Origin: a bacterium
Lineage (GTDB): Bacteria; Patescibacteriota; Microgenomatia; UBA1406; GWC2-37-13
Assembly: GCA_043798165.1 (NCBI GenBank)
Contig: JAZDOY010000034.1
Span: forward strand, 17,778 to 81,777
Length of the DNA: 64,000 bases
Reading direction: 5' to 3'
Shown here: positions 43,491-64,000 of the stretch, piece by piece
Position numbering within the stretch: the first letter of the stretch is position 1
Layout: each line of letters starts with the position of its first letter
Position numbers and translations under genes: made by a program
The notes under the pieces: generated by a model
What the model was told of the DNA's origin: nothing
Database searches by the model: none
The model's input: the letters and a program-made list of their open reading frames with translations, nothing else

Positions 43491-44354
43491 CGACAGATAC
43501 TCCGTTGGACCTCATTTGGTGAGGACCTCTCCCTTCAGGGGAGAATGTGGATAACTTCTTCACACTTAGCCTCATATCTTCTTCTCTAGAGCGATACATC
43601 AATCTAAATAAATGTTATATATTGATATAGTTTGAGGGCAAAAACAGCCTCAAAAACGCAATATTAGATTGATACAATGCTCTAAACATGAGATACTCCC
43701 CGGGGTATTGTGGTGTCGCGTGATAAAGATCACACTACCGTAAGTGATATCCAAAAATAGCCTTGAAAGTGGTAATTTAGAGCAACATTATGTGCTAAAT
43801 CATACACCATATAGCCACGTTATGTCGTATTTATCTATTGATTGAAAGTGGTCAAGTATCCACAACCAATAGCAACTATATGTTCGCGCGATGATACAAG
43901 AACATGTGATATGTAAGTATGTGAAGAGAAGAAGCGGATCTCCGTTCCCCTGAAAGAAAGATACACACACTTATTTCTTGTTCAGCCGACTGGCAGACTT
44001 GTGACACAAATTCCCGCAGAGAGAAGGATATATACAACGTCGTATAATGTATCTTTTACGACGTCAGCCAGGCTCAAAAGAGGGGGGTTGGGTAAAATAA
44101 ACAAATGAAGAATAAACAAATTATTTGTTTATTTGATTATTATTTTATTTATTTATTTCTTTATTTCCCCTCTCAATTCCCCTCTTAATTTGTTTCCTCG
44201 TTTTTCCCGTTTCGGCGTAAAGAAATAATTCCCGCAAATAACCGCATTAGAGCGCAATGACAGTCTATTTAATTATTTGATTATTATTCACTTGATTCCC
44301 TACCCCTCATCCCTTCTTGTGAGGTGTGTGGCTGGGGGTATATAATGTATATCT

Positions 44355-46540: not shown

Positions 46541-46572
46541 AAAAAAACCTCGGGGATACCCGAGGTTTTTTT
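46541..46572. terminator. bidirectional rho-independent terminator
   Basis: AAAAAA-ACCTCGGG-gata-CCCGAGGT-TTTTTT lies between convergent genes. Confidence 0.75.
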
Positions 46573-53900: not shown

Positions 53901-54012
53901 TAAACTCTAAATCATAAACTCTACACAAATCCTAAATAAAAACTTTTAAATCCCAAAGTATGCTGCTTAGAATTTAGAATTTTGTGTCAATTTGGTTAGG
54001 ATTTAGAGTTTA
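53901..54012. repeat. long AT-rich inverted repeat at convergent junction (probable bidirectional terminator)
   Basis: TAAACTCTAAATC (53901-53913) is perfectly complementary to GATTTAGAGTTTA (54000-54012). The inner pair is ACACAAA (53933-53939) with TTTGTGT (53981-53987). The right arm overlaps the last codons of ORF 53996-54721. Confidence 0.5.
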
Positions 54013-54721
54013 ATATTTTTGATTTCAGCATAAGATATTTTCGTCTTTTTTCCTCTGGAAACCGTTCAATTGCATAACGAAACATTGTTCGTGGCATTGT
54101 TTTGCCAAATTTATTAAGAAATTCATCCTCCTCTTTTTGACCTCCCCTCTTTCCTATTTCCCGCAGCATCCACCCCACTGCCTTTTGGATAAGATCGTGT
54201 TTATCATGCACAAGAATTTTTGCAATTGCAAGAGCTCGGTCAAACTTTCCCCTTTTTATATCTGCAAATGTTGCCAACATTGCAATACGTTTTTTCCATA
54301 AAGAAGCAGATTTGGCGAATATGTACAACGTCGTTATATCTTTATCTGCTAAATAATCCCCTACTATATGAGGCGCAGAAAGATCTATTAAATCCCAATT
54401 ATTTACACACTTTGTATTATGGATATATAGGTCATAAATAACCTTCTTTTGTGTTTTTCCTCCCTTCCTATACTGTTCTATAAGGATGAATAAAGCCATG
54501 AGTCGATATTCATGAATAGGGCTTTGAAGAAGCTTAGTAACGTCGTTTAAGGCAAGAGATACAAATTGCTTTGCAATTTTTCTTTGAATTGGTACCATAA
54601 TGCCTAGAAATACATCTCCTTCGGCATACTCTCCCTTCCCCGTCTTGAAAAACCGCTGAAGGGCCTTTGCTTTTTCAGGATTGGCGTGAGATTGAATTAA
54701 CAAACACAAATCCCTATACAC
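53996..54721 (-). CDS. DNA alkylation repair protein (AlkD/HEAT-repeat type)
   Basis: The length and motifs (NPEKAKALQRFFKTGKGEYAEGDVFLG, NNWDLIDLSA, WKKRIAML) are typical of the DNA_alkylation family. Confidence 0.75.
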   Translation of the reverse strand: MYRDLCLLIQSHANPEKAKALQRFFKTGKGEYAEGDVFLGIMVPIQRKIAKQFVSLALNDVTKLLQSPIHEYRLMALFILIEQYRKGGKTQKKVIYDLYIHNTKCVNNWDLIDLSAPHIVGDYLADKDITTLYIFAKSASLWKKRIAMLATFADIKRGKFDRALAIAKILVHDKHDLIQKAVGWMLREIGKRGGQKEEDEFLNKFGKTMPRTMFRYAIERFPEEKRRKYLMLKSKILNSKS

Positions 54722-54739
54722 AAATGTATATTAATTTTA

Positions 54740-55441
54740 TTAAGGATGAATAATGGTTCCTGTAAATTTTTTACCTTCAATTATTTTATCAATATTTGCA
54801 TGATTTTTGCCGTTAGCAACAATCACGGTTAATCCCAATTCTTTTGCAAGTTTGGTTGCGATTGGATCAAAAGGGAGGTTGAGTCCGGGAGTCCATTTGT
54901 CACCCACAATTTTTTCCATCTCAGTCCAAGTAATATCCTTTATTATTTTTGCATCCTTGCTCATATTGGGATCTTTGTCGTAGACATAATCTATATTGGA
55001 GAGATTAATAATAAGCTTCCCTCCATAATCTCTTGCTAGAACAACAGCATCATAGTCGGTTGACCAGCCTGGTTTCCATCCCGCACCAATGGCTAAAGGT
55101 TGTATCCAATTTTCCAGTTTATGATCATAATTTTCTATTATTCGTGGATGTGCAATATCATATAACATTGTTCGTAGCAAATGTGCATTGACTCTGGTAA
55201 TGTGAATAGCCAACCAATCGAGATCATCATTGGAGATGCCCTTAGTAACGGAAGTTGCAGCATCCCGATAATGCCGCATAATGTTTCCTCCTCCCACAAC
55301 AAGTAAAAACCGTCTCCCTTTCTTTACTTCTTTTCTGATAAAAGAATTAAACGATACTAAAAAACTATGATCTATCCCTCCGTTGGGGACAATTAATGAT
55401 CCGCCAACCGAGATTATGATTATTTTTTCTTTAGAAAACAT
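54740..55441 (-). CDS. pyrH: amino-acid-kinase fold protein, archaeal-type UMP kinase-like
   Basis: Carries IIISVGGSLIVP, VVGGGN and STDYDAVVLA. The start was set to MFSKEK. The pyrH assignment is tentative. Confidence 0.65.
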   Translation of the reverse strand: MFSKEKIIIISVGGSLIVPNGGIDHSFLVSFNSFIRKEVKKGRRFLLVVGGGNIMRHYRDAATSVTKGISNDDLDWLAIHITRVNAHLLRTMLYDIAHPRIIENYDHKLENWIQPLAIGAGWKPGWSTDYDAVVLARDYGGKLIINLSNIDYVYDKDPNMSKDAKIIKDITWTEMEKIVGDKWTPGLNLPFDPIATKLAKELGLTVIVANGKNHANIDKIIEGKKFTGTIIHP

Positions 55442-55807: not shown

Positions 55808-56578
55808 ATGAGTAAACCACAGGGTTGTAATTTTTGTTTAATACCTCAAGAAAAAACTACAGAATCCTTTAAAAAACTGCATGGGGATTTGCTCCATACT
55901 CTCAATATCCCCGGTGTCCCAAATACATTTACTGTTTTACAGGATGTTGTTCCAATTGCAGAACTTGGGGCTCATATTTTATTGATGCCAAATCTCCATG
56001 ATATCTCACTGGCTTCTGTTGCCGATAAAGAAGGCATGTTGGTAGCAAAAGATGCGATTGTTGAAGCCCTACAAAAACATTTTCCTGATAACCCAATTTT
56101 TACCTTTGAACATGGTCCTGGTTTTATCCAGGGGGAATCTATTGCATGTGGCGGGTGTCATATGGATCATGCGCATGGCCATATTATGGTTTTACCAAAA
56201 AAAACATCTTTTGACATGATACAACAACGAATGGAGGAAATTTTAATCCTTAATGGTTGGAAAAATCCGAGATCACATGCAGTAGAATCGATACATATTT
56301 TTACTGACTCCGTTAGCTTTGCTGGAATGCAGCCATATTTGCACATCGGTATGATTTTTCCTGAAGGAAAAACAATATCATACACATATGTTCAAAAATC
56401 AAAATCTTTTAATGTTCCTTCCCAGTTACTGCGGCTCGTTGTTGCAGACGTTGTATACGATCAAAAAGATCCAACATATTGGCATTGGAGAGATGTTGAA
56501 AGTGGATTAACCTCTCCTGACAGAATGCATGAATTAAAAACTAATGTGACCGCTTTTAGAAAGCTTACAGGATTTTAA
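55808..56578 (+). CDS. HIT-superfamily (histidine triad) protein with C-terminal extension
   Basis: Has an N-terminal CNFC, the block AHILLMPNLH, and the histidine triad HAHGHIMVLP. Confidence 0.65.
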   Translation: MSKPQGCNFCLIPQEKTTESFKKLHGDLLHTLNIPGVPNTFTVLQDVVPIAELGAHILLMPNLHDISLASVADKEGMLVAKDAIVEALQKHFPDNPIFTFEHGPGFIQGESIACGGCHMDHAHGHIMVLPKKTSFDMIQQRMEEILILNGWKNPRSHAVESIHIFTDSVSFAGMQPYLHIGMIFPEGKTISYTYVQKSKSFNVPSQLLRLVVADVVYDQKDPTYWHWRDVESGLTSPDRMHELKTNVTAFRKLTGF

Positions 56579-56597
56579 GTGTGTTAAAGTTATACTT

Positions 56598-57890
56598 ATG
56601 AAGTACAAAACGAGAAAAAAAGATCCCGTTGACATCTCGAAACAAAATGATATCCCAGCTTCCCTCCCCGCGCTCACCTATCTTAGTCATCTCTACAACC
56701 TTGAGAAAATACGTCCATTTGATGGTTTGAAGATTTTAGCTGTACAACACCTTCTTGGTTCAACGATTCCCTTTTTTGAAATGCTTGAAAAGGGAGGAGT
56801 GAAGCCACAGGATGTTTATATTGTGGGCAAAGCATATTCATCACATCCAAAAGTTGTAAAGTTGTTGCAAGCTAAGGGATACAATGTCACGTTTGATGAA
56901 GTTTTTGACCATATTGATAATCTGCCATATGACACCACGTTAGAGAAACATATTATTTCTACAGCTAAAAACTTACTCGATAATTTGGGGAAAAAAAGAG
57001 GATTAATAATTGATGATGGAGGAAAAGCAATTCGACTTTTACACCAATTATATCCACAATTAGCAGATAGATTTACCGGTGTAGAACAAACAAGTAGAGG
57101 TGCCCGTTTAGTAAGCACAATTGATCTGAAGTGTCCAATAGTAAATGTTGCCCGAAGTGATGCAAAAACCATCAATGAATCACCCATGATTGCAAAATCA
57201 ATGGTGGATGAATTTGTTACCTCCTTAATAAGATGGGATGCAAGCGGTGTCTTCAAAGCAAAAGGTAATAATATGCTTTTATTAGGCTATGGTTATATTG
57301 GAGAGCAAGTAGCAAAAAAGATGAAAAATTATGACTTCAATGTTACCGTTTATGATCCAGATAGTAATAAATTAAAGAAAGCGATGGATGATGGATATGT
57401 AACAGTTTCAATCAGAGCAAATGCATATGACAAAGCACATATTATTGTTGGAGCATCGGGTACACAAGTGATTCCACATGAAGAATACAATGCTCTTGCC
57501 AAAGGCACATTACTAGTCAACATGGCATCGACAGACACTGAATTTAGTGCGTGGAATTTAAGACCACAAGGAAAAATCGTTGATCAATGTATACTGCCTA
57601 GTGATAAACAATATCTAAGCACTTATATGCCATTGCCGTGGCGTTCTTTATACAAAATTCAGTTATCTCAAACCTATTTTTATCTGGCAAATGGAGGATT
57701 TCCGAGCGACTTTTCCGGAAAAATAAATCCCATTCCATCAGAAGATATTCAACTTACTTCAGCGCTGCTACTAGGAGGAGCCATTCAATCGACACAAGCG
57801 CGCAAACCACTGTTTTATGATTTAGACTTGGATCTACAAAATAACGTTATTTCCGAATATAACAGATTAAAAAGTGTGAGAACGAAATAG
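56598..57890 (+). CDS. divergent S-adenosyl-L-homocysteine hydrolase-family protein
   Basis: Blocks align with SAHH. DDGGKAI aligns with DDGGD. GVEQTSRGARL aligns with GxSEETTTGVxRL. PIVNVARSDAKT aligns with PAINVNDSVTKS. The NAD Rossmann motif is LLLGYGYIGEQVA. Confidence 0.65.
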   Translation: MKYKTRKKDPVDISKQNDIPASLPALTYLSHLYNLEKIRPFDGLKILAVQHLLGSTIPFFEMLEKGGVKPQDVYIVGKAYSSHPKVVKLLQAKGYNVTFDEVFDHIDNLPYDTTLEKHIISTAKNLLDNLGKKRGLIIDDGGKAIRLLHQLYPQLADRFTGVEQTSRGARLVSTIDLKCPIVNVARSDAKTINESPMIAKSMVDEFVTSLIRWDASGVFKAKGNNMLLLGYGYIGEQVAKKMKNYDFNVTVYDPDSNKLKKAMDDGYVTVSIRANAYDKAHIIVGASGTQVIPHEEYNALAKGTLLVNMASTDTEFSAWNLRPQGKIVDQCILPSDKQYLSTYMPLPWRSLYKIQLSQTYFYLANGGFPSDFSGKINPIPSEDIQLTSALLLGGAIQSTQARKPLFYDLDLDLQNNVISEYNRLKSVRTK

Positions 57891-57894
57891 AATT

Positions 57895-58383
57895 TTATGA
57901 AAAATGACGACGAAACTCTTGATATGCTAATACGGCCTCTCTTACATTTGCGTCTTGAATTGCAGTTAATGCTTCTTGGGGAAGTACCCATTTATACGCA
58001 TCTTGCTCTTGTTCCCCCTCCTCATGTTTACCTAAAACAATTTTTTGATCATCTGGGCAAGAACAGTAAAAATTAACCCCAAAATGTGGTTTTTTATCAA
58101 CTCCGTGTTCAAAATAAAATGTTCGATAAGGGGCAATAACATCCACCCGGAGACCAACCTCTTCCTCTACCTCCCTTTTCAGTGCCTCAATCATATCTGT
58201 TTCTCCTTGGTTAATCCTTCCCGTAACAAGTTCCCATTCCCCCGGTCTATGAATGTGGTGAATGGAGCGTCTTGTTATTAATATTTCACCACGAGAATTT
58301 TCTATAATTGCAGAAACCGCAACATTAAATAGCCCTACTTCTGGTTTCAGTATTCCTGATTTATATAGAGCTTCTGGTTTCAT
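57895..58383 (-). CDS. NUDIX hydrolase
   Basis: Has the Nudix box GRINQGETDMIEALKREVEEEVGL. The start was set to the internal MKPEAL to reduce overlap with sufU. Confidence 0.8.
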   Translation of the reverse strand: MKPEALYKSGILKPEVGLFNVAVSAIIENSRGEILITRRSIHHIHRPGEWELVTGRINQGETDMIEALKREVEEEVGLRVDVIAPYRTFYFEHGVDKKPHFGVNFYCSCPDDQKIVLGKHEEGEQEQDAYKWVLPQEALTAIQDANVREAVLAYQEFRRHFS

Positions 58384-58747
58384 ATGCTTGAATTCCTTTT
58401 TGTATCGCCTTGTAGGGAAGTAACGCACACTTTGTTCTTCCTGAAATATAATTTGGCGGGAGAAGCGATAAAAACGCCTCTTCAGTAATTTTTTTTATTT
58501 CATCAATGTGTTTACCTTTAATACTGTCAAAAAAAATAGATGAAGCGGCTTTTGCGATAACACAACTATAACTTGTAAATAAAAGATTTGAGATTGTTGA
58601 ATTTGATAAGACAACTGTCAGATGAATCTTGTCACCGCAGAGTGGATTTAGCTCTTCAATATCAATGTCTGGAGAAGAAAGAGCACCATAATTACGAGGT
58701 AGTTTCCAATGATCCATTATGATATCGCTATATAATTTATTACTCAT
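58361..58747 (-). CDS. sufU: SufU/IscU-type Fe-S cluster scaffold or sulfur acceptor
   Basis: Has NPLCGDKIHL, and later Cys residues in SYSCVIAKA and GRTKCALL. It lies directly downstream of sufS. Confidence 0.8.
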   Translation of the reverse strand: MSNKLYSDIIMDHWKLPRNYGALSSPDIDIEELNPLCGDKIHLTVVLSNSTISNLLFTSYSCVIAKAASSIFFDSIKGKHIDEIKKITEEAFLSLLPPNYISGRTKCALLPYKAIQKGIQAYETRSSI

Positions 58748-58750
58748 ATC

Positions 58751-59989
58751 TTATACACGTAACATTTTTTTTGCATTAATAAGCTTTTTAAATAGCGTGG
58801 TAAGATCGCTTTCTTCATTGTAGATATAACATGATGCTCTTGTTGTTGCAAATGTTCCTAAAATACTCATTAGTGTTTGTGCACAGTGATTTCCGGAGCG
58901 AACACAAATTCCGGATTGATCTAAGATTTGCGCAATATCATGTGGATGTATGCCATTAATGGCAAAAGAAAATATTGCTAAACGATTATCTTCAGTTTTT
59001 GGACCATAAAGAGTAAAATCTTTTTCTTGTTGAAACAGTTTTAAACCATGCTTGACAAGTTTTTTGTCATGATTTTCAACTGCGTCCATTCCTATTGATT
59101 CCAAATATGATATAGCTGCACCTAAGCCAACTACAGCTTCAAGTTTTCCAGTTCCTACCTCAAACTTATCCGGAACATCCGCAAAATCAGTTTTCTCTTT
59201 CGTTACCTTACCTACCATGTGACTACCAACAAAAAGTGGATCCATAACTTCCAACAATTCTTTTTTTGCCCATAATACCCCAACACCACTGGGACCAAGC
59301 ATTTTATGAGACGAAAATGCTAAAAAATCACAATTCAACATTTGAACATCAATCTTCATATGTGGAACCGTTTGTGCTGCATCAACAAGTACCTTTGCCT
59401 GTATTCCCTCTTTTTTCAAAAATGCAACAATTTCTCCTATGGGGTTTATGGTTCCAAGCACATTAGATCCATGTACGATGCTTACAAGTTTTACTTTCTT
59501 AAGATCGATATTTGCCGAAAGAAGAGCCTGGTAATCAAGTCGATAATCTTGGTCAAGGGGTAAAAAATAAAGCACTATCCCTATTTCATCACGAAGACGT
59601 TGCCAAGGAATGACATTTGCATGGTGTTCCATGTCAGTAATAACAACGACATCTCCCTTTTGGAGAAACTTTTTTGCCCACCCTGTGGCAACTAAATTTA
59701 TTGCCTCATTGGTGTTTCCGGTAAAAACAATCTCAGATGAAGAAGAGGCGTTAAGAAATTTTGCCACCTTTGTTCGGACATCTTCATAAGCTGTAGTTGC
59801 TTCGTCTGCAAGTTTATAAATCCCACGATGGATATTAGCATTGGTCGTCTCATAGAATCTGCTTACGGCATCTATTACCGTTTTAGGTTTTTGACTTGTT
59901 GCTCCGGTATCCAAATAAATGAAAGGTCCATTTTTCTTGCGATTAGCAAAAATTGGAAAGTCTTTTTGTATATTCTTTGCGTTGAGCAT
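58751..59989 (-). CDS. sufS: cysteine desulfurase, SufS type
   Basis: Has the PLP Lys block FSSHKMLGPSGVGVL and the catalytic Cys loop VRSGNHCAQ. Confidence 0.92.
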   Translation of the reverse strand: MLNAKNIQKDFPIFANRKKNGPFIYLDTGATSQKPKTVIDAVSRFYETTNANIHRGIYKLADEATTAYEDVRTKVAKFLNASSSSEIVFTGNTNEAINLVATGWAKKFLQKGDVVVITDMEHHANVIPWQRLRDEIGIVLYFLPLDQDYRLDYQALLSANIDLKKVKLVSIVHGSNVLGTINPIGEIVAFLKKEGIQAKVLVDAAQTVPHMKIDVQMLNCDFLAFSSHKMLGPSGVGVLWAKKELLEVMDPLFVGSHMVGKVTKEKTDFADVPDKFEVGTGKLEAVVGLGAAISYLESIGMDAVENHDKKLVKHGLKLFQQEKDFTLYGPKTEDNRLAIFSFAINGIHPHDIAQILDQSGICVRSGNHCAQTLMSILGTFATTRASCYIYNEESDLTTLFKKLINAKKMLRV

Positions 59990-60180: not shown

Positions 60181-60915
60181 TCACACTGCCTTTAAGTGAG
60201 TTCCCCTTATCCTTCCAGTGTCCAAATAGTATTTTAAATTTCCTAATTCTTCACCATTAAGACACACGAAATCTATTTTAGCAGACATAGCCGCTTTTGC
60301 AGCTACTGGATCTACTGGAAAATTAAGACCGGGAGAATATTTTAAAGTATCAAAAATTTCAAAAAACCGTTGCCAAGTCATGTTTTTAATTGGTCGTGAC
60401 AAATCTGGCGTACCGTCCTGACATGGCCAAAAAAGGAAAGAAGTTTTACTGAGGTTAATTACCACACCAATCTGTTGTTCTTCAGCGATTTTAACAGCCA
60501 CGAAATCAGTAGTATGACCAGGACCATCCCCCGCAGTCACCCACACCCGATGATTTTTTTTACACTTTGACATATCCCGTCGCGATCTTACATATTTTGC
60601 ATCAACATCTGCCTCTACCAATCGTGCGGCGACTTCTCGTGCATTAACACGTGTTTGTTCAATAGCCAACCTATCTAAGGCGTCGTCATTGGTTACGCCT
60701 TGAGATATGGCAAGAGTTATGGCGGCTCGAGCCAAAAGACCTCCTCCGCAAACAACAAATGCTGCAGAATCAGGAAGTCTAGAACATTCTTTAAGAAGGG
60801 AGGCAAATTCACCAAGAAAGGGAGTATTAAAAGTAATGGGACCTGTACCACTTTGTCTGTCTATTATTGATCCCCCGACACTTAACACCATTCGTGGAGG
60901 TCCCTCTGCTTTCAT
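60181..60915 (-). CDS. second amino-acid-kinase fold paralog (UMP kinase-like), function unknown
   Basis: It aligns block by block with ORF 54740-55441. The matched blocks are SVGGS, VCGGG/VVGGG, NDDALDRLAIEQTRVNA/NDDLDWLAIHITRVNA, TTDFVAV/STDYDAV and SPGLNFPVDPVAAK/TPGLNLPFDPIATK. The start may be the MVLSVGG Met at 60891. Confidence 0.65.
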   Translation of the reverse strand: MKAEGPPRMVLSVGGSIIDRQSGTGPITFNTPFLGEFASLLKECSRLPDSAAFVVCGGGLLARAAITLAISQGVTNDDALDRLAIEQTRVNAREVAARLVEADVDAKYVRSRRDMSKCKKNHRVWVTAGDGPGHTTDFVAVKIAEEQQIGVVINLSKTSFLFWPCQDGTPDLSRPIKNMTWQRFFEIFDTLKYSPGLNFPVDPVAAKAAMSAKIDFVCLNGEELGNLKYYLDTGRIRGTHLKAV

Positions 60916-61016
60916 ATGTGTACATGAGGCATAAATAACGAAGACAGGAAATTATCAATTAAATTCATTCTATATCGGAGTATATCATGGAAGAAGGAGA
61001 AAATCAACAATTCCCG

Positions 61017-62453
61017 TTATTTTGCTTCAATTGTTCTTCTGCGCACCTGATTTCCTATTTGACGTAAGTCAGTAAGTAATCTGAGCTCGTTTTGAAGGGG
61101 AACCGCACTAATTTGACTTATTGGGTAATAATCTTTTGCTCCCCGACCAACTAACGTATCTGTGTCATCTCTGAGCTCATATTTTAGCAGTTCTTCTGCC
61201 GTTCTCCCCCCCGCGATCAACCTGTTCCAATCTGTTGTTCCCGGATAGGGTCGATATTTATAAGCTGATACAGTAAGCTTCCCCCCTTGTTGTTCGGCTA
61301 AGGCATGAATTTCCTGTGCAAAGGATAGTGTCCGTTTCATTTCCTCTTCCGTTTCGTTTGGAAATCCCAACATGAAGTAAGCCAAAACATCTATTTTCCG
61401 AGAAATGAGCCGAACAATTGAAGTTCTCACCTGCTCCATAGTTATGTGTTTATTTATTTCTTTTAATGCTGCATCAGATCCTCTTTCTACTCCCATAAAA
61501 ATTTTTGAGGCGCCGCTTAAGGCTAAAATATCCAAAACGTCTTCAGAAAGATTTTGGATTATATTTGCTCGGCCATTTGCCCTCCAACTAAATCCTGTTT
61601 CTTTGCTGATACCCCGCCTCATCAATTCCTCAAAAATCCCCCTGATTCTTTTTTCCGATATTAGCGCAAGATCATCTTCAAATTTAATGTCACGGACTCC
61701 CTCTTTGTATAATTCTTCTATTTCTTCAACAATTGACTGAGGAGATCTTTGCCTCACCTTGTTTCCCCGTCCTTGTCTTGCCCCGGCGCAAAATGTACAA
61801 TCCATAGGGCATGATCGCGATCCAAGCACACATGCGCGAACAACACCATCCTTCCCAACAAAGGGATGATTAGGCACATATCTTCTATCGAGGCGTAATG
61901 TATCCAAGTCTGCCACGATCCATTCAGGGCTTATTGTATTGTCAGGGTTGTGAACAATTTGATCTCCTTCTCTATATGAGAGGCCTGGGATCTGTTTTTT
62001 TGGTATATCCTGTAGTAAAGCTGCAACCTTCTTCTCACCCTCTCCCCTTACTAATACACTGTTCTTAAATGTAGGATGACGTAACACGTCTTCAGGAAGA
62101 GTTGTTGCATGGGGACCTCCGATCATGATTTTTATAGACGGATCAATAAGATCAACTAACTGTCTTGTGAGATCCGCATTGGCAGTGAATATGTTGATTC
62201 CGCACCATTTGGGCTTGATTCTATTTACCTCTCGTGCTATGGCTTCAATTGAGGCCTGGTCAGCTTCACCGTCGGTGACGGCAACGCGTTTACCAATAGA
62301 GTGAGCATAAGAAGCGATGTAGCTCAAACCAAGTGGCACATGATACGCTTGTTCATGTGATTGCCCCTCCGTATCGGAGTAGGGGTATAGAGGCGTGTTT
62401 ATTAAAACAAGCTCAGGATTTTCATCTCCACAAAATCGTAATTGATTTGACAT
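61017..62453 (-). CDS. B12-binding-domain radical SAM enzyme (class B-like)
   Basis: Has an N-terminal Rossmann-like cobalamin-binding-type domain followed by the radical SAM cluster motif CPMDCTFCAG (CxxxCxxC). 478 aa. Confidence 0.8.
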   Translation of the reverse strand: MSNQLRFCGDENPELVLINTPLYPYSDTEGQSHEQAYHVPLGLSYIASYAHSIGKRVAVTDGEADQASIEAIAREVNRIKPKWCGINIFTANADLTRQLVDLIDPSIKIMIGGPHATTLPEDVLRHPTFKNSVLVRGEGEKKVAALLQDIPKKQIPGLSYREGDQIVHNPDNTISPEWIVADLDTLRLDRRYVPNHPFVGKDGVVRACVLGSRSCPMDCTFCAGARQGRGNKVRQRSPQSIVEEIEELYKEGVRDIKFEDDLALISEKRIRGIFEELMRRGISKETGFSWRANGRANIIQNLSEDVLDILALSGASKIFMGVERGSDAALKEINKHITMEQVRTSIVRLISRKIDVLAYFMLGFPNETEEEMKRTLSFAQEIHALAEQQGGKLTVSAYKYRPYPGTTDWNRLIAGGRTAEELLKYELRDDTDTLVGRGAKDYYPISQISAVPLQNELRLLTDLRQIGNQVRRRTIEAK

Positions 62454-62480
62454 ATGTTAAAACAACAGCATTAATATGCT

Positions 62481-62513
62481 AATTATCAATATAAATTATT
62501 GATATTGATAATT
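62481..62513. promoter_or_regulatory. operator-like perfect 12-bp inverted repeat in divergent promoter region
   Basis: AATTATCAATAT (62481-62492) and ATATTGATAATT (62502-62513) form the repeat. The half-site AATTATCAAT recurs at 60950-60959, upstream of the kinase-like gene. Confidence 0.45.
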
Positions 62514-62601
62514 CATATATAATGCCTTATAATAATAACTATTATATCATAATATACATATAAAATATATATGTATTTATCGATAAAGCTAAAAAAAGTA
62601 T

Positions 62602-63519
62602 ATGGCACTATTATCAGAAATCACGCGACCAGATTTGCTTACGAGTATCGTAACTGACGCCAGAATAATGGCAAACAGGCAGCATGTTATTGATCCCGAA
62701 AAAGCGTGTGCAGTAAGATCATTGGTTGATTCCCGTTTTATTCAACCTTGGAAAGAGGCCAAACGAAGATTACCGTATCTAGAGCATATGCAACTGGGAA
62801 TTTACGGCTCATTTGTGTATGGAGACCCATCTGTTGTTCCCCATGACATTGATTTGGCTGTAGGTGTTTCTGACGAATTGTTGCCACACCTACCAGAAAT
62901 ATTGGACAGGTTAGAGAACGAAGGACCTTCATATATGAGGTTATCCATGGGTGATAAAGACTTGGTAGTTACAACCTTACAAAATCCACAACCGGCGGAA
63001 ATACATCTTGCTGATACTGCAGAAGCAGCGGTGGATAGCACGTTCTATCACTTAAAGTGGATGAGAAATTCAGACATAATTGCAGCTTCAAGTATTGAAG
63101 CGCCAAACTATGACTATTTCAAATATGTTAGACCGTCATATTATGAAGGTATGCATAATGAAATGGTCACTCCAACGAAGTTGCTTGACGGAACGTTATT
63201 CAAGGGTCCCATAACAAAGGAGGACGTTAGTTCCACCGTTCAAAGAATTGTCTATCCACGTCATTATTGGGAGAAAGACGGACGTGTCCATATTGCAGTA
63301 CCTCGCCTTTACCATTCGCTTGTAGCAGCCACATCCACCATGGAGGGGGAAACGATATGGGACGAAGCTCAGAGGCGCACAGTAGCAAGTATGGCGCATC
63401 TACTTAAAACTTACTACGGCATTCATGATAGAGACTCTATTTTTATTGCCTTTCAAAGAGCAATGATAAAGATGTATCCGGATAAATATCTAGCAAAGCT
63501 TTACAGTCAACTGCCATAA
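62602..63519 (+). CDS. Pol-beta-superfamily nucleotidyltransferase-like protein, function unknown
   Basis: GIYGSFVYGD ... HDIDLAV fits the G-S ... D-x-D minimal NTase motif. The remaining 200 aa or so are unrecognised. Confidence 0.5.
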   Translation: MALLSEITRPDLLTSIVTDARIMANRQHVIDPEKACAVRSLVDSRFIQPWKEAKRRLPYLEHMQLGIYGSFVYGDPSVVPHDIDLAVGVSDELLPHLPEILDRLENEGPSYMRLSMGDKDLVVTTLQNPQPAEIHLADTAEAAVDSTFYHLKWMRNSDIIAASSIEAPNYDYFKYVRPSYYEGMHNEMVTPTKLLDGTLFKGPITKEDVSSTVQRIVYPRHYWEKDGRVHIAVPRLYHSLVAATSTMEGETIWDEAQRRTVASMAHLLKTYYGIHDRDSIFIAFQRAMIKMYPDKYLAKLYSQLP

Positions 63520-63646
63520 CTTCAGAACATAAGCCTCACTGTTCTTTTTTCCAATGTGTGGCAGTATGAGTGTAAATGAACAAGGTAAGCAGAAAATAAA
63601 TAACTTTATGGTAGAATGAACTCAACAAAATTCTTGTGTTTTAAAT

Positions 63647-63763
63647 ATGTGCACCATCTGGGACGATGTTAGAACCTATTTAACCTCTCAAATCGATCCT
63701 AAAGAAAAAGCTAATCTTATAGCCTCTATCTCCCATCTTAAACAAAAGGAGGGAAAGCCATGA
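63647..63763 (+). CDS. 38-aa mini-ORF translationally coupled to downstream PLD-like gene (speculative)
   Basis: The ATG is at 63647 and the stop TGA at 63761-63763 overlaps the next ATG (ATGA). An extended -10 element, TGgTAGAAT, lies at 63609-63617. Confidence 0.3.
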   Translation: MCTIWDDVRTYLTSQIDPKEKANLIASISHLKQKEGKP

Positions 63764-64000
63764 ACTGGTTCAAAAGATCGAACGATTCTAGCAATATATC
63801 CTCAGACTTAGTAACTTCTATTTTATATGATGAGGTAACTTTTTACAATCAGTTTATCCTGGATTTAACGGCTGTTTCTAGCGAAGTTATTATCGAAAGT
63901 CCTTTCATTTCAAGCAATAGAATGAGAAGACTTCGACCTATTTTTGAAAAATTGATAAACAAGGGAATAAAAGTCTTTATTATGACCCGCGATCCTAAAG
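63760..64000 (+). CDS. partial ORF (5' end), PLD/Nuc-superfamily-like N-terminus (tentative)
   Basis: The frame is open to the window end. SEVIIESPFISSNRMRRLRPIFEKLINKGIKVFIMTRDP resembles the start of PLD-like nuclease domains. The HxK motif would lie beyond the window and is not seen. Confidence 0.4.
   Translation, partial: MNWFKRSNDSSNISSDLVTSILYDEVTFYNQFILDLTAVSSEVIIESPFISSNRMRRLRPIFEKLINKGIKVFIMTRDPK

Follow-up and report, generated by a model that had tools for sequence, protein, structure and literature searches.

A cobalamin-type radical SAM gene followed by a diverged UMP-kinase-like paralog in a Microgenomatia bacterium, and its relatives in phage- and plasmid-borne cassettes

The radical SAM enzyme and its place in the locus

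We examined a 64,000-nt stretch of the genome of a Microgenomatia bacterium (Patescibacteriota; GenBank assembly GCA_043798165.1, contig JAZDOY010000034.1, positions 17,778–81,777), which we call the window, and focused on a gene for a B12-type radical S-adenosylmethionine (SAM) enzyme that lies towards its end (61017–62453, minus strand). The product has 478 amino acids (aa) and carries the sequence CPMDCTFCAG. Downstream on the same strand, after a gap of 101 nt, lies a gene for a 244-aa protein of the amino-acid-kinase fold (PF00696; 60181–60915), a paralog of the archaeal-type uridine monophosphate (UMP) kinase PyrH that is encoded in the same orientation at 54740–55441. The order on the minus strand continues with a 191-nt gap and the genes for a cysteine desulfurase (sufS), a scaffold protein (sufU) and a NUDIX hydrolase. 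The plus strand carries a divergent 305-aa open reading frame (ORF; 62602–63519), a 38-aa mini-ORF (63647–63763) and the first 80 codons of a PLD/Nuc-like ORF (63760–64000), the rest of which is cut off by the window edge. All of the ORFs listed in an earlier note on this DNA, which was drawn up from the sequence alone, were recovered, including the ATGA overlap at 63760 that joins the last two.

Searches against Pfam bore out the two domains that the earlier note had read into the 478-aa protein, namely a B12-binding domain (PF02310, 55.9 bits against a cut-off of 32.1) and a radical SAM domain (PF04055, 75.4 bits, likewise above cut-off). The cysteines of the cluster motif CxxxCxxC (C215, C219 and C222) were invariant across 69 homologues. 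An AlphaFold2 (AF2) model built from these homologues had a mean predicted local distance difference test (pLDDT) score of 88.7, and its closest folds over the full length were MgmA, TsrM, OxsB, AprD4 and CysS; the full-length matches to TsrM, OxsB and MgmA, together with the PF02310 match, indicate that an N-terminal Rossmann-type B12-binding domain is present. OxsB ranked among the top matches both by structure (E = 3e-18) and by profile (E = 4e-12). The same note had held that the enzyme is not viperin-like, and our results agreed: the fold matches were of the B12 type, no viperin appeared among the top 50 fold matches of the model, and PADLOC gave no pVip match at E values up to 0.1.

No equivalog family of NCBIfam was reached, as the best score was about 119 bits against cut-offs of 481–750. 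The best NCBIfam and PDB sequence matches were to BchE, HpnJ, ApyD, which acts on a peptide that is made on the ribosome and modified after translation (RiPP), and MgmA, a protein methylase. Class-B radical SAM enzymes usually methylate unactivated carbons, and OxsB contracts a deoxyribose ring. The matches to BchE, HpnJ, ApyD and MgmA favor the idea that the protein is an ordinary class-B methyltransferase for a non-nucleotide substrate such as a peptide or RiPP, a lipid or a cofactor, with the nucleotide genes nearby being incidental. We considered this highly improbable, given that the scores fall far below the cut-offs, that no precursor peptide or lipid genes were seen, and that nucleotide-enzyme neighbors recur across phyla, with non-homologous kinases, in the survey described below.

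The nearest relatives of the enzyme were only 33–36% identical. They scored 269–240 bits, and the next sequences reached 177 bits at most. In a neighbor-joining (NJ) tree, the window enzyme fell inside a clade linked to kinase genes, on a long basal branch, as sister to P0003 at locus L001. Membership in this clade is based on the score gap and the tree together. We concluded that the 478-aa protein is, as predicted from its sequence, a cobalamin-type (class-B architecture) radical SAM enzyme that is basal in an uncharacterised clade.

Gene neighborhoods of the family and the kinase paralog

A scan of one genome per species, with patterns taken from a 5-sequence alignment, found 557 relatives of the enzyme, and the neighborhood counts given here refer to the 80 closest of these species-representative genomes. 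Most of the 80 were Streptomyces and other actinomycetes, and Bradyrhizobium, Chloroflexota, Saccharibacteria and Levybacteria were also represented. A Tmk-like kinase gene was directly adjacent to the radical SAM gene in 67 of the 80, and an AlkA-like glycosylase gene was directly adjacent in 71, nearly always upstream; a NUDIX gene stood just after the kinase in 44. The Tmk-like protein passed the dTMP-kinase equivalog (108.3 bits against a cut-off of 83.25). The AlkA-like family matched structures of AlkA and of 3-methyladenine glycosylase, and in an alignment judged by eye this helix-hairpin-helix (HhH-GPD) protein keeps an aspartate at the AlkA catalytic position.

Gene order varied among the branches. 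At locus L004 the order is AlkA-like (HhH-GPD) gene, radical SAM gene, Tmk-like gene and NUDIX gene, and at L002 the radical SAM gene is followed by a Cmk-like gene, with a NUDIX gene nearby. Two Levybacteria loci (L009 and L043) have a deoxyribosyltransferase-like gene (PF05014, E = 0.02), the radical SAM gene, a CYTH gene, a Cmk-like gene and a NUDIX gene, and L043 continues with a gene for an NDK-domain protein (PF00334, E = 4e-15). At L011 a gene for a uracil-DNA glycosylase (UDG) lies between the radical SAM and Tmk-like genes, and in Bradyrhizobium acaciae (L077) the order is Tmk-like gene, radical SAM gene and UDG-like gene (PF03167, E = 0.0026, below cut-off). With the exception of L001 and L038, the inspected branches all keep a pyrimidine nucleoside monophosphate (NMP) kinase gene beside the enzyme. 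The earlier note had seen the logic of a nucleotide modification pathway in the pairing of a radical SAM gene with a nucleotide kinase. That logic was considerably strengthened at the level of the family, where Tmk-like and Cmk-like neighbors recur, and was not supported in the form first proposed, a three-gene regulon under one operator, to which we return below.

Three of the inspected loci deserve description in their own right. Locus L038 (1481–3723), from a Saccharibacteria metagenome-assembled genome (MAG), has an AlkA-like gene and then the radical SAM gene, at 51% guanine-plus-cytosine (GC) content, and no kinase gene. Saccharibacteria live on actinomycetes, and this cassette may represent a transfer from host to symbiont. 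Locus L001 (637–13205), the sister locus, offers a different and richer setting: it encodes a PNP_UDP_1 protein, an NAD-dependent epimerase, a shikimate-dehydrogenase-like protein, a 238-aa nucleotidyltransferase-like protein and a 344-aa protein, as well as a second radical SAM enzyme (413 aa), an HSP70-like protein, an ABC transporter and two NUDIX proteins; it looks like a small nucleoside-modifying gene cluster. Locus L043 (5273–13194) holds its cassette, then a gene for a 431-aa fusion protein with the NDK domain, next the PLDc_2 homologue of the truncated ORF in the window, and lastly small ORFs that by eye resemble toxin–antitoxin genes of the BrnT/BrnA and RelE/ParE kinds.

The cassette is carried by phages and plasmids. 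The full four-gene set corresponds to gp35–gp38 of the temperate Streptomyces phage SF3 and lies beside the integrase gene gp39. At this locus (L103, 6169–9542) the genes encode the AlkA-like protein, the B12 radical SAM enzyme, a thymidylate kinase and the NUDIX protein, and they sit between the regulatory and lysis genes on one side and the integrase on the other, a position typical of morons. Ten IMG/VR viral contigs contain the full cassette, 9 of them in addition to SF3. The radical SAM gene was present on 12 Streptomyces or Kitasatospora plasmids, and on the one of these whose annotation we inspected the cassette proved complete. Streptomyces chromosomes carry it too. Some copies lie among defense genes. 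In a Spartobacteria MAG (L012, 4034–10888), a Bil system (BilC, BilD) and Wadjet (JetA, JetB) flank the radical SAM gene, which is accompanied by a gene of the UDG family in convergent orientation (PF03167, E = 1e-10). At L077 (625–7871) the Tmk-like, radical SAM and UDG-like genes have as neighbors the genes for a helicase that is HamB-like (100 bits) and for its 292-aa partner. We found no published description of the cassette with the word combinations that we tried.

The window departs from this cassette. No P-loop dTMP-kinase-like gene adjoins the radical SAM gene, and tblastn found no Tmk or Cmk homologue anywhere in the window; the kinase of the amino-acid-kinase fold is there instead. 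Nor is there an HhH-GPD gene directly upstream, where the divergent 305-aa ORF lies. The sole kinase near the window enzyme is directly downstream, in the position where its relatives have a Tmk-like or Cmk-like kinase. No neighbor of the amino-acid-kinase fold was found beside any of the radical SAM relatives.

The earlier note had described this kinase as a diverged paralog of the gene at 54740–55441, and the relation between the two was upheld. In NCBIfam, the protein encoded at 54740–55441 scored 175.8 bits with TIGR02076, above the cut-off of 158.05, and is the housekeeping PyrH; the 244-aa protein scored 102.7 bits, under the cut-off, and is the diverged copy. The two align end to end at 31% identity. 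In an alignment of seven sequences, which come from the clade of the paralog, from PyrH and from a further two, more distant relatives, the paralog keeps all 34 invariant columns, including GGS, GGG, R63 and GHTTD, and its best PDB matches are uridylate kinases. It therefore resembles PyrH in fold and in these motifs, but unlike PyrH it fails the equivalog cut-off, carries two insertions specific to its clade and evolves faster.

Close relatives of the paralog occur in three contigs only (L005, L006 and L008), where the gene immediately precedes pyrH as its tandem partner and is itself preceded by genes for an HD-domain protein and a small P-loop protein. These relatives are 57% identical to the window paralog, whereas the PyrH proteins of the same genomes (L005, L008) are 88–90% identical to the window PyrH. 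Since the close relatives sit by PyrH without a radical SAM gene, and since PyrH is approximately 89% identical where the paralog is 57% identical, we concluded from sequence comparison that the paralog is an older, fast-evolving and lineage-specific duplicate of the archaeal-type UMP kinase, which now lies behind the radical SAM gene. The tandem at L005 (608–5428) and L008 (895–2487) is preceded by genes for a GFO/IDH/MocA protein, a short-chain dehydrogenase/reductase (SDR), the P-loop protein and the HD-domain protein; the P-loop protein has 202 aa and gives weak dNK and AAA matches.

We tentatively favor the reading that a mobile, uncharacterised family of B12-type radical SAM enzymes acts on pyrimidine nucleotides, and that the window holds a variant in which the kinase has been swapped for a duplicate of PyrH; we judge this to fall a little short of an even chance. 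Because the neighbors of the family (NMP kinases, NUDIX, CYTH and NDK proteins, and enzymes that cut N-glycosidic bonds) act on free nucleotides, the neighborhoods speak for a pyrimidine (deoxy)nucleoside phosphate as substrate or product. The need for an NMP kinase of its own seems to be so strong that the family has recruited three unrelated kinases to the position: Tmk-like, Cmk-like and, here, a UMP-kinase duplicate of the amino-acid-kinase fold. The paralog would then be a non-homologous replacement in the canonical kinase position, with a different fold and the same kind of job, and a partner of the radical SAM enzyme.

Under such a scheme, the NUDIX or CYTH protein would turn a pyrimidine (deoxy)nucleoside triphosphate into the monophosphate. 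The radical SAM enzyme would then alter the NMP after hydrogen abstraction by the 5'-deoxyadenosyl radical, through cobalamin-mediated methyl transfer, rearrangement or dehydration. The dedicated kinase, and then NDK, would rebuild a triphosphate from the altered NMP, and the altered nucleotide might poison or mark replicating DNA or RNA, in a conflict with phage or as a DNA modification. A glycosylase-type protein could act on the target DNA or rid the DNA of the cell itself of the altered base. What our data show are the domain architecture, the fold, the clade membership, the neighborhood statistics and the carriage by phages and plasmids; the class of substrate, the type of reaction, the partnership with the paralog, the part played by the NUDIX protein and the biological purpose are inferred.

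Several observations weigh against this reading. No member of the family is characterised, and its substrate and reaction are deduced from gene neighborhoods only. The use of cobalamin by the window enzyme is not certain, since a close structural relative, AprD4, has the same architecture and dehydrates a diol without binding cobalamin (PMC12931638). The window enzyme has only about one quarter of the positions that are specifically conserved in its clade, no NMP kinase gene adjoins its counterpart at the sister locus L001, and the window has no glycosylase-type gene next to the enzyme. The pairing of an amino-acid-kinase gene with the radical SAM gene was seen in this one genome only, no radical SAM gene was in view near the paralog of the close relatives, and a weak promoter-like site lies in the 101-nt gap between the two genes. 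Lastly, in a survey of flanking genes, approximately 8 of 97 large ORFs from 64 loci strongly matched defense models; embedding in defense islands is thus anecdotal, and a role in defense is only suggestive.

Some of these same observations would be expected if the adjacency were coincidental, that is, if the paralog had arisen from PyrH as a lineage-specific copy for housekeeping or salvage, for example as a kinase for cytidine or deoxycytidine monophosphate (CMP/dCMP) or another NMP in a reduced genome, and the radical SAM gene had by chance come to lie beside it, its product working alone or with partners out of view. The tandem arrangement in the only close relatives and the promoter-like site in the gap both fit this explanation, as does a metagenome scan that found no further close copies of the paralog. 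The raised GC content of the paralog is likewise shared by its relatives and absent from third codon positions, and it gives no signal of transfer in common with the radical SAM gene. Against coincidence, 67 of the 80 related genomes, and all the inspected branches other than L001 and L038, keep a pyrimidine-NMP kinase gene beside the enzyme, and the window, which lacks a nearby P-loop kinase, has exactly one kinase gene in the canonical downstream position. Moreover, the paralog evolves far faster than PyrH, which is unusual for a housekeeping enzyme. We consider coincidence rather doubtful, while giving it appreciable weight.

The divergent promoter, the 305-aa ORF and the flanking genes

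The region between the radical SAM gene and the 305-aa ORF contains an inverted repeat that the earlier note had pointed out. An inverted-repeat search confirmed perfect 12-nt arms at 62481–62492 and 62502–62513, which lie within a 23-nt, 83% complementary, imperfect palindrome that spans 47 bp at 62474–62520 (unstranded). Such repeats are rare: we found 3 distinct perfect inverted repeats of at least 12 nt with a spacer of at most 20 nt in the 64 kb, against 0.1 expected from shuffles that kept local composition. The other two lie at 44095–44134 and 46541–46572, and the latter (AAAAAACCTCGGG...CCCGAGGTTTTTT) resembles a bidirectional intrinsic terminator between convergent genes. A sigma-70-like sequence (TTGATA-17-TATAAT; 62505–62533, plus strand) matches the consensus at 11 of 12 positions, is the best such site of the region and faces the 305-aa ORF; the right arm of the palindrome contains its -35 element. 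Because the palindrome is rare and overlaps the best promoter-like site, it is plausible as a local operator.

A wider role for this site had also been claimed, namely that an unseen repressor binds AATTATCAAT in both intergenic regions and controls the radical SAM gene, the kinase paralog and the 305-aa gene as one regulon. We counted four copies of the 10-mer in the window where 1.17 would be expected, but the arms of the palindrome make up two of them. The copy at 60950–60959 (plus strand), which lies between the radical SAM and paralog genes, was no better than chance. Of 300 shuffles, 33 gave the two intergenic regions an exact 10-mer in common, and such sharing was also seen with 30 of 136 other real, AT-rich stretches of 101 nt from the same sequence. 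We therefore rejected a shared operator, as both the 10-mer and a 16-of-20 match were at chance level when tested against the shuffles and the real AT-rich stretches.

The third gene of the proposed regulon (62602–63519, plus strand) was claimed to encode a Pol-beta nucleotidyltransferase. The motif behind the claim is present, GIYGSFVYGDPSVVPHDIDL, with the form GS-x11-DxD at residues 69–84, and the pattern hG[GS]-x9-13-Dh[DE]h is matched by GIYGSFVYGDPSVVPHDIDLAV at residues 66–87. No profile or fold gave the assignment significant support. The full-length protein had no Pfam, NCBIfam, PADLOC or PDB match, and an 83-aa fragment matched PF18765 at E = 0.1, with 13.2 bits against a cut-off of 26.9. 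A word-indexed search of 5.8 billion proteins returned only the protein itself, and an exhaustive HMMER search of 1.84 billion representatives returned itself and one marginal match (E = 9e-4). By BLAST it had no match among all of the neighbor proteins, and hhalign showed no relation to the AlkA-like family (probability 0.2%). An AF2 model from the single sequence had a pLDDT of 38.4 and was not interpretable. By these searches, the gene is a true ORFan, and nucleotidyltransferase is a motif-level guess at its function.

Relatives of the radical SAM gene do have nucleotidyltransferase-like neighbors at two loci, L010 (PF01909, E = 6.7e-7) and, weakly, L001 (E = 0.064). These neighbors, the motif in the 305-aa ORF, and a palindrome that is real, rarer than chance and overlaps a strong promoter-like site are what the three-gene regulon has in its favor. 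Several points oppose it. The third half-site is at chance level, the 305-aa protein lacks a significant family match and gives a low-confidence model, and L010 falls outside the kinase-linked clade in the NJ tree. Minimal nucleotidyltransferases are common in small genomes and in archaea. In addition, the trio is syntenic in no relative, an outcome that the earlier note itself had named as contrary to its finding. We consider the regulon very unlikely. The 305-aa ORFan and the palindrome form, as we see it, a local and lineage-specific promoter or regulatory unit, whose link to the radical SAM and kinase pair is unproven.

At the window edge, the earlier note had called the pairing of the mini-ORF and the PLD-like ORF typical of defense or toxin modules. 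The assignment of the truncated ORF to the PLD/Nuc-like proteins was right, because a full-length homologue, a 162-aa Levybacteria protein at L043 that is 61% identical over 62 aa, matches PF13091 (E = 1.3e-10) and contains HRKLAIID...GSLN (HxKx4D ... GSxN). The truncated ORF itself had no Pfam match, and in PADLOC it gave weak matches to the PLD-bearing MkoB and MkoC. Searches of plasmids and the PDB with the fragment gave nothing useful, the PDB matches being repeat-protein artefacts. From its homologue, we concluded that the truncated ORF is predicted to be a small, single-HKD PLD/Nuc-like protein, with the HKD motif itself lying past base 64000. The homologue lies approximately 1.5 kb past the end of the L043 cassette, a second co-occurrence, which may or may not carry meaning. 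An extended -10-like sequence (TGgTAGAAT) is present approximately 30 nt upstream of the mini-ORF, as had been noted. The pairing did not fare as well, because the 38-codon ORF is not conserved upstream of the L043 homologue. The 38-codon ORF also had no PADLOC match, and we found no support for its being a gene.

Downstream of the kinase paralog, the run of minus-strand genes continues with a SufS-like cysteine desulfurase (58751–59989; PF00266, E = 4.6e-130), a NifU/SufU-like iron–sulfur (Fe-S) scaffold protein (58361–58747; PF01592, E = 1.5e-20) and, as the last of the co-directional genes, the NUDIX hydrolase (57895–58428; PF00293, E = 1.7e-20). No terminator-like site was found on the minus strand from 62453 to 59990, that is, up to sufS. 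As listed, the NUDIX ORF overlaps the 3' end of sufU by 68 nt (58361–58428), or by 23 nt if the ATG at 58383 is the start, and either length is consistent with translational coupling in one transcript. The SufS-like protein, encoded next to the kinase paralog, may plausibly supply Fe-S clusters, yet it may simply be housekeeping. The NUDIX gene stands on this strand too, at a distance of 1.75 kb and with sufS and sufU in between, and is a candidate for the equivalent of the one that the relatives have in their cassettes.

The interval between pyrH and the NUDIX gene (55808–57890, plus strand) holds two co-directional orphan genes, both singletons at 90% identity. The first encodes a 256-aa protein with an HIT-like HxHxH motif (HMDHAHGHIMVLP, by eye) and without a family match. 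The second encodes a 430-aa protein that is a very divergent relative of S-adenosylhomocysteine hydrolase (TIGR00936, 71.9 bits against a cut-off of 497.6). Both are nucleotide- or S-adenosylhomocysteine-related enzymes near the radical SAM gene. Directly downstream of pyrH lies a gene for an AlkD-like DNA alkylation repair glycosylase (53996–54721, minus strand; PF08713, E = 2e-59), which attracts attention because the cassettes of the relatives carry glycosylases of other folds, but is probably incidental. Judged by eye from its gene content, the genome appears small and reduced. The GC content of the radical SAM, paralog and 305-aa genes is 0.42–0.43, against a window mean of 0.383 (standard deviation 0.03), and their third-position GC is within one standard deviation. 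We considered a recent horizontal transfer of the three genes and set it aside, as neither measure gave a usable composition signal.

Known systems and the proposed role of the cassette

A precedent for the proposed chemistry is offered by OxsB and OxsA. Bridwell-Rabb and colleagues are said to have reported in 2017 that this B12 radical SAM enzyme and its HD phosphohydrolase partner act on dAMP, dADP and dATP in the biosynthesis of oxetanocin-A. As is proposed for the present family, OxsB is a radical SAM enzyme of the B12 type, takes a free deoxynucleotide as its substrate and has a phosphate-handling partner; its product is an antiviral nucleoside analogue, its genes are plasmid-borne, and it was among our top structural and profile matches. 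Unlike the window enzyme, OxsB has 744 aa with extra domains and a purine substrate, and the two are only 16–18% identical in structural alignment; no orthology is implied. The partner differs as well, being an HD hydrolase in OxsA rather than a kinase and a NUDIX protein.

Viperin and the prokaryotic pVips offer a second comparison. With kinases of the CMPK2 type, as Gizzi and colleagues (in 2018) and Bernheim and colleagues (in 2021) are said to have described, they make a modified pyrimidine nucleotide by a pathway that the NMP kinase feeds. The logic of a radical SAM gene with an adjacent NMP kinase gene, in a mobile and defense-linked setting, is common to both. In contrast, viperin has no B12 domain and belongs to another radical SAM subfamily, and the window enzyme has no pVip match. 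A further counterpart, flagged as a defense candidate, is the PADLOC pair PDC-M51, in which A is a radical SAM protein and B a P-loop kinase. The window enzyme matched M51A (41.9 bits, E = 1.4e-11), and the Tmk-like proteins of its relatives matched M51B (E = 2e-11 and 3e-11), whereas the window kinase did not. Low scores of this kind (about 42 bits) indicate relatedness, not membership. A literature search found no published test of PDC-M51.

Compared with the SF3-type cassette itself, the window has a radical SAM enzyme of the same clade (32–36% identity, E values of 1e-73 to 1e-89). This is followed on its strand by an immediately adjoining kinase gene and, at a greater distance, by a NUDIX gene. 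It differs in that the SF3-type kinase is of the P-loop kind and an AlkA-like gene is present, whereas in the window the NUDIX gene is separated from the pair by sufS and sufU and the enzyme is basal and divergent.

The glycosylases of the family raise the question of whether the chemistry takes place on DNA, with the cassette serving post-replicative base hypermodification or repair and the window copy being a remnant. The AlkA-like HhH-GPD protein with its aspartate at the catalytic position (by eye), the UDG-like genes of other branches and the carriage of the cassette by phage SF3 all speak for this possibility. There is also a precedent in phage thymidine hypermodification, in which a P-loop kinase (5-HMUDK), an HhH-fold protein (aGPT-Pplase) and a radical SAM isomerase resembling spore photoproduct lyase (SPL) take part (PMC8989533). 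Both this pathway and the cassette form of the family combine a kinase and a radical SAM enzyme with a protein of the HhH glycosylase fold. However, thymidine hypermodification acts on 5-hydroxymethyldeoxyuridine (5-hmdU) already in DNA, its radical SAM enzyme resembles SPL and is without a B12 domain, and it lacks NUDIX, CYTH and NDK proteins. It also has the HhH protein, whereas the window has none and no glycosylase gene lies beside its enzyme. The kinases of the relatives belong to bona fide NMP-kinase families, since the Tmk-like protein passes the dTMP-kinase cut-off and the others are Cmk-like or, here, UMP-kinase-like, and their companions NUDIX, CYTH and NDK act on free nucleotides. 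The identities of the NMP kinases and of these companions are a better fit to free nucleotides than to DNA, and we consider a DNA-level cassette unlikely.

Returning to the reading that the family acts on pyrimidine nucleotides, two candidates for the reaction may be named. One possibility is cobalamin-mediated methylation at the C5 substituent of a nucleotide of the dUMP or dTMP type, which would give a 5-alkyl-dUMP; another is dehydration or rearrangement of the sugar in the manner of viperin, AprD4 or OxsB. We also considered a radical SAM thymidylate synthase, that is, an enzyme for a folate-independent conversion of dUMP to dTMP, an idea that the Tmk, UDG and NUDIX neighbors had suggested. 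This was not adopted, because the Cmk-like and UMP-kinase-like variants and the carriage by phages and plasmids fit an accessory role better. More broadly, the family may form an undescribed class of mobile B12-type radical SAM systems that make a modified pyrimidine nucleotide for phage–host conflict or DNA marking, a possibility that we regard as real and yet on balance doubtful.

If the family does modify pyrimidine nucleotides, the few enzymes known to make nucleotide antimetabolites or DNA hypermodifications, namely viperin, OxsB and the thymidylate-synthase-like enzymes of phages, would be joined by a radical SAM branch of the cobalamin type. Culturable and tractable members exist in gp35–gp38 of Streptomyces phage SF3 and on Streptomyces plasmids. 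For annotation, the finding means that, across hundreds of genomes of actinomycetes, proteins labelled "dTMP kinase" or "radical SAM protein" are parts of one accessory cassette and not of core metabolism. The window would provide a natural experiment, in which a P-loop kinase has been replaced by a UMP-kinase duplicate of the amino-acid-kinase fold, and which hints at the kind of compound that serves as substrate. PyrH would, moreover, have undergone neofunctionalisation here.

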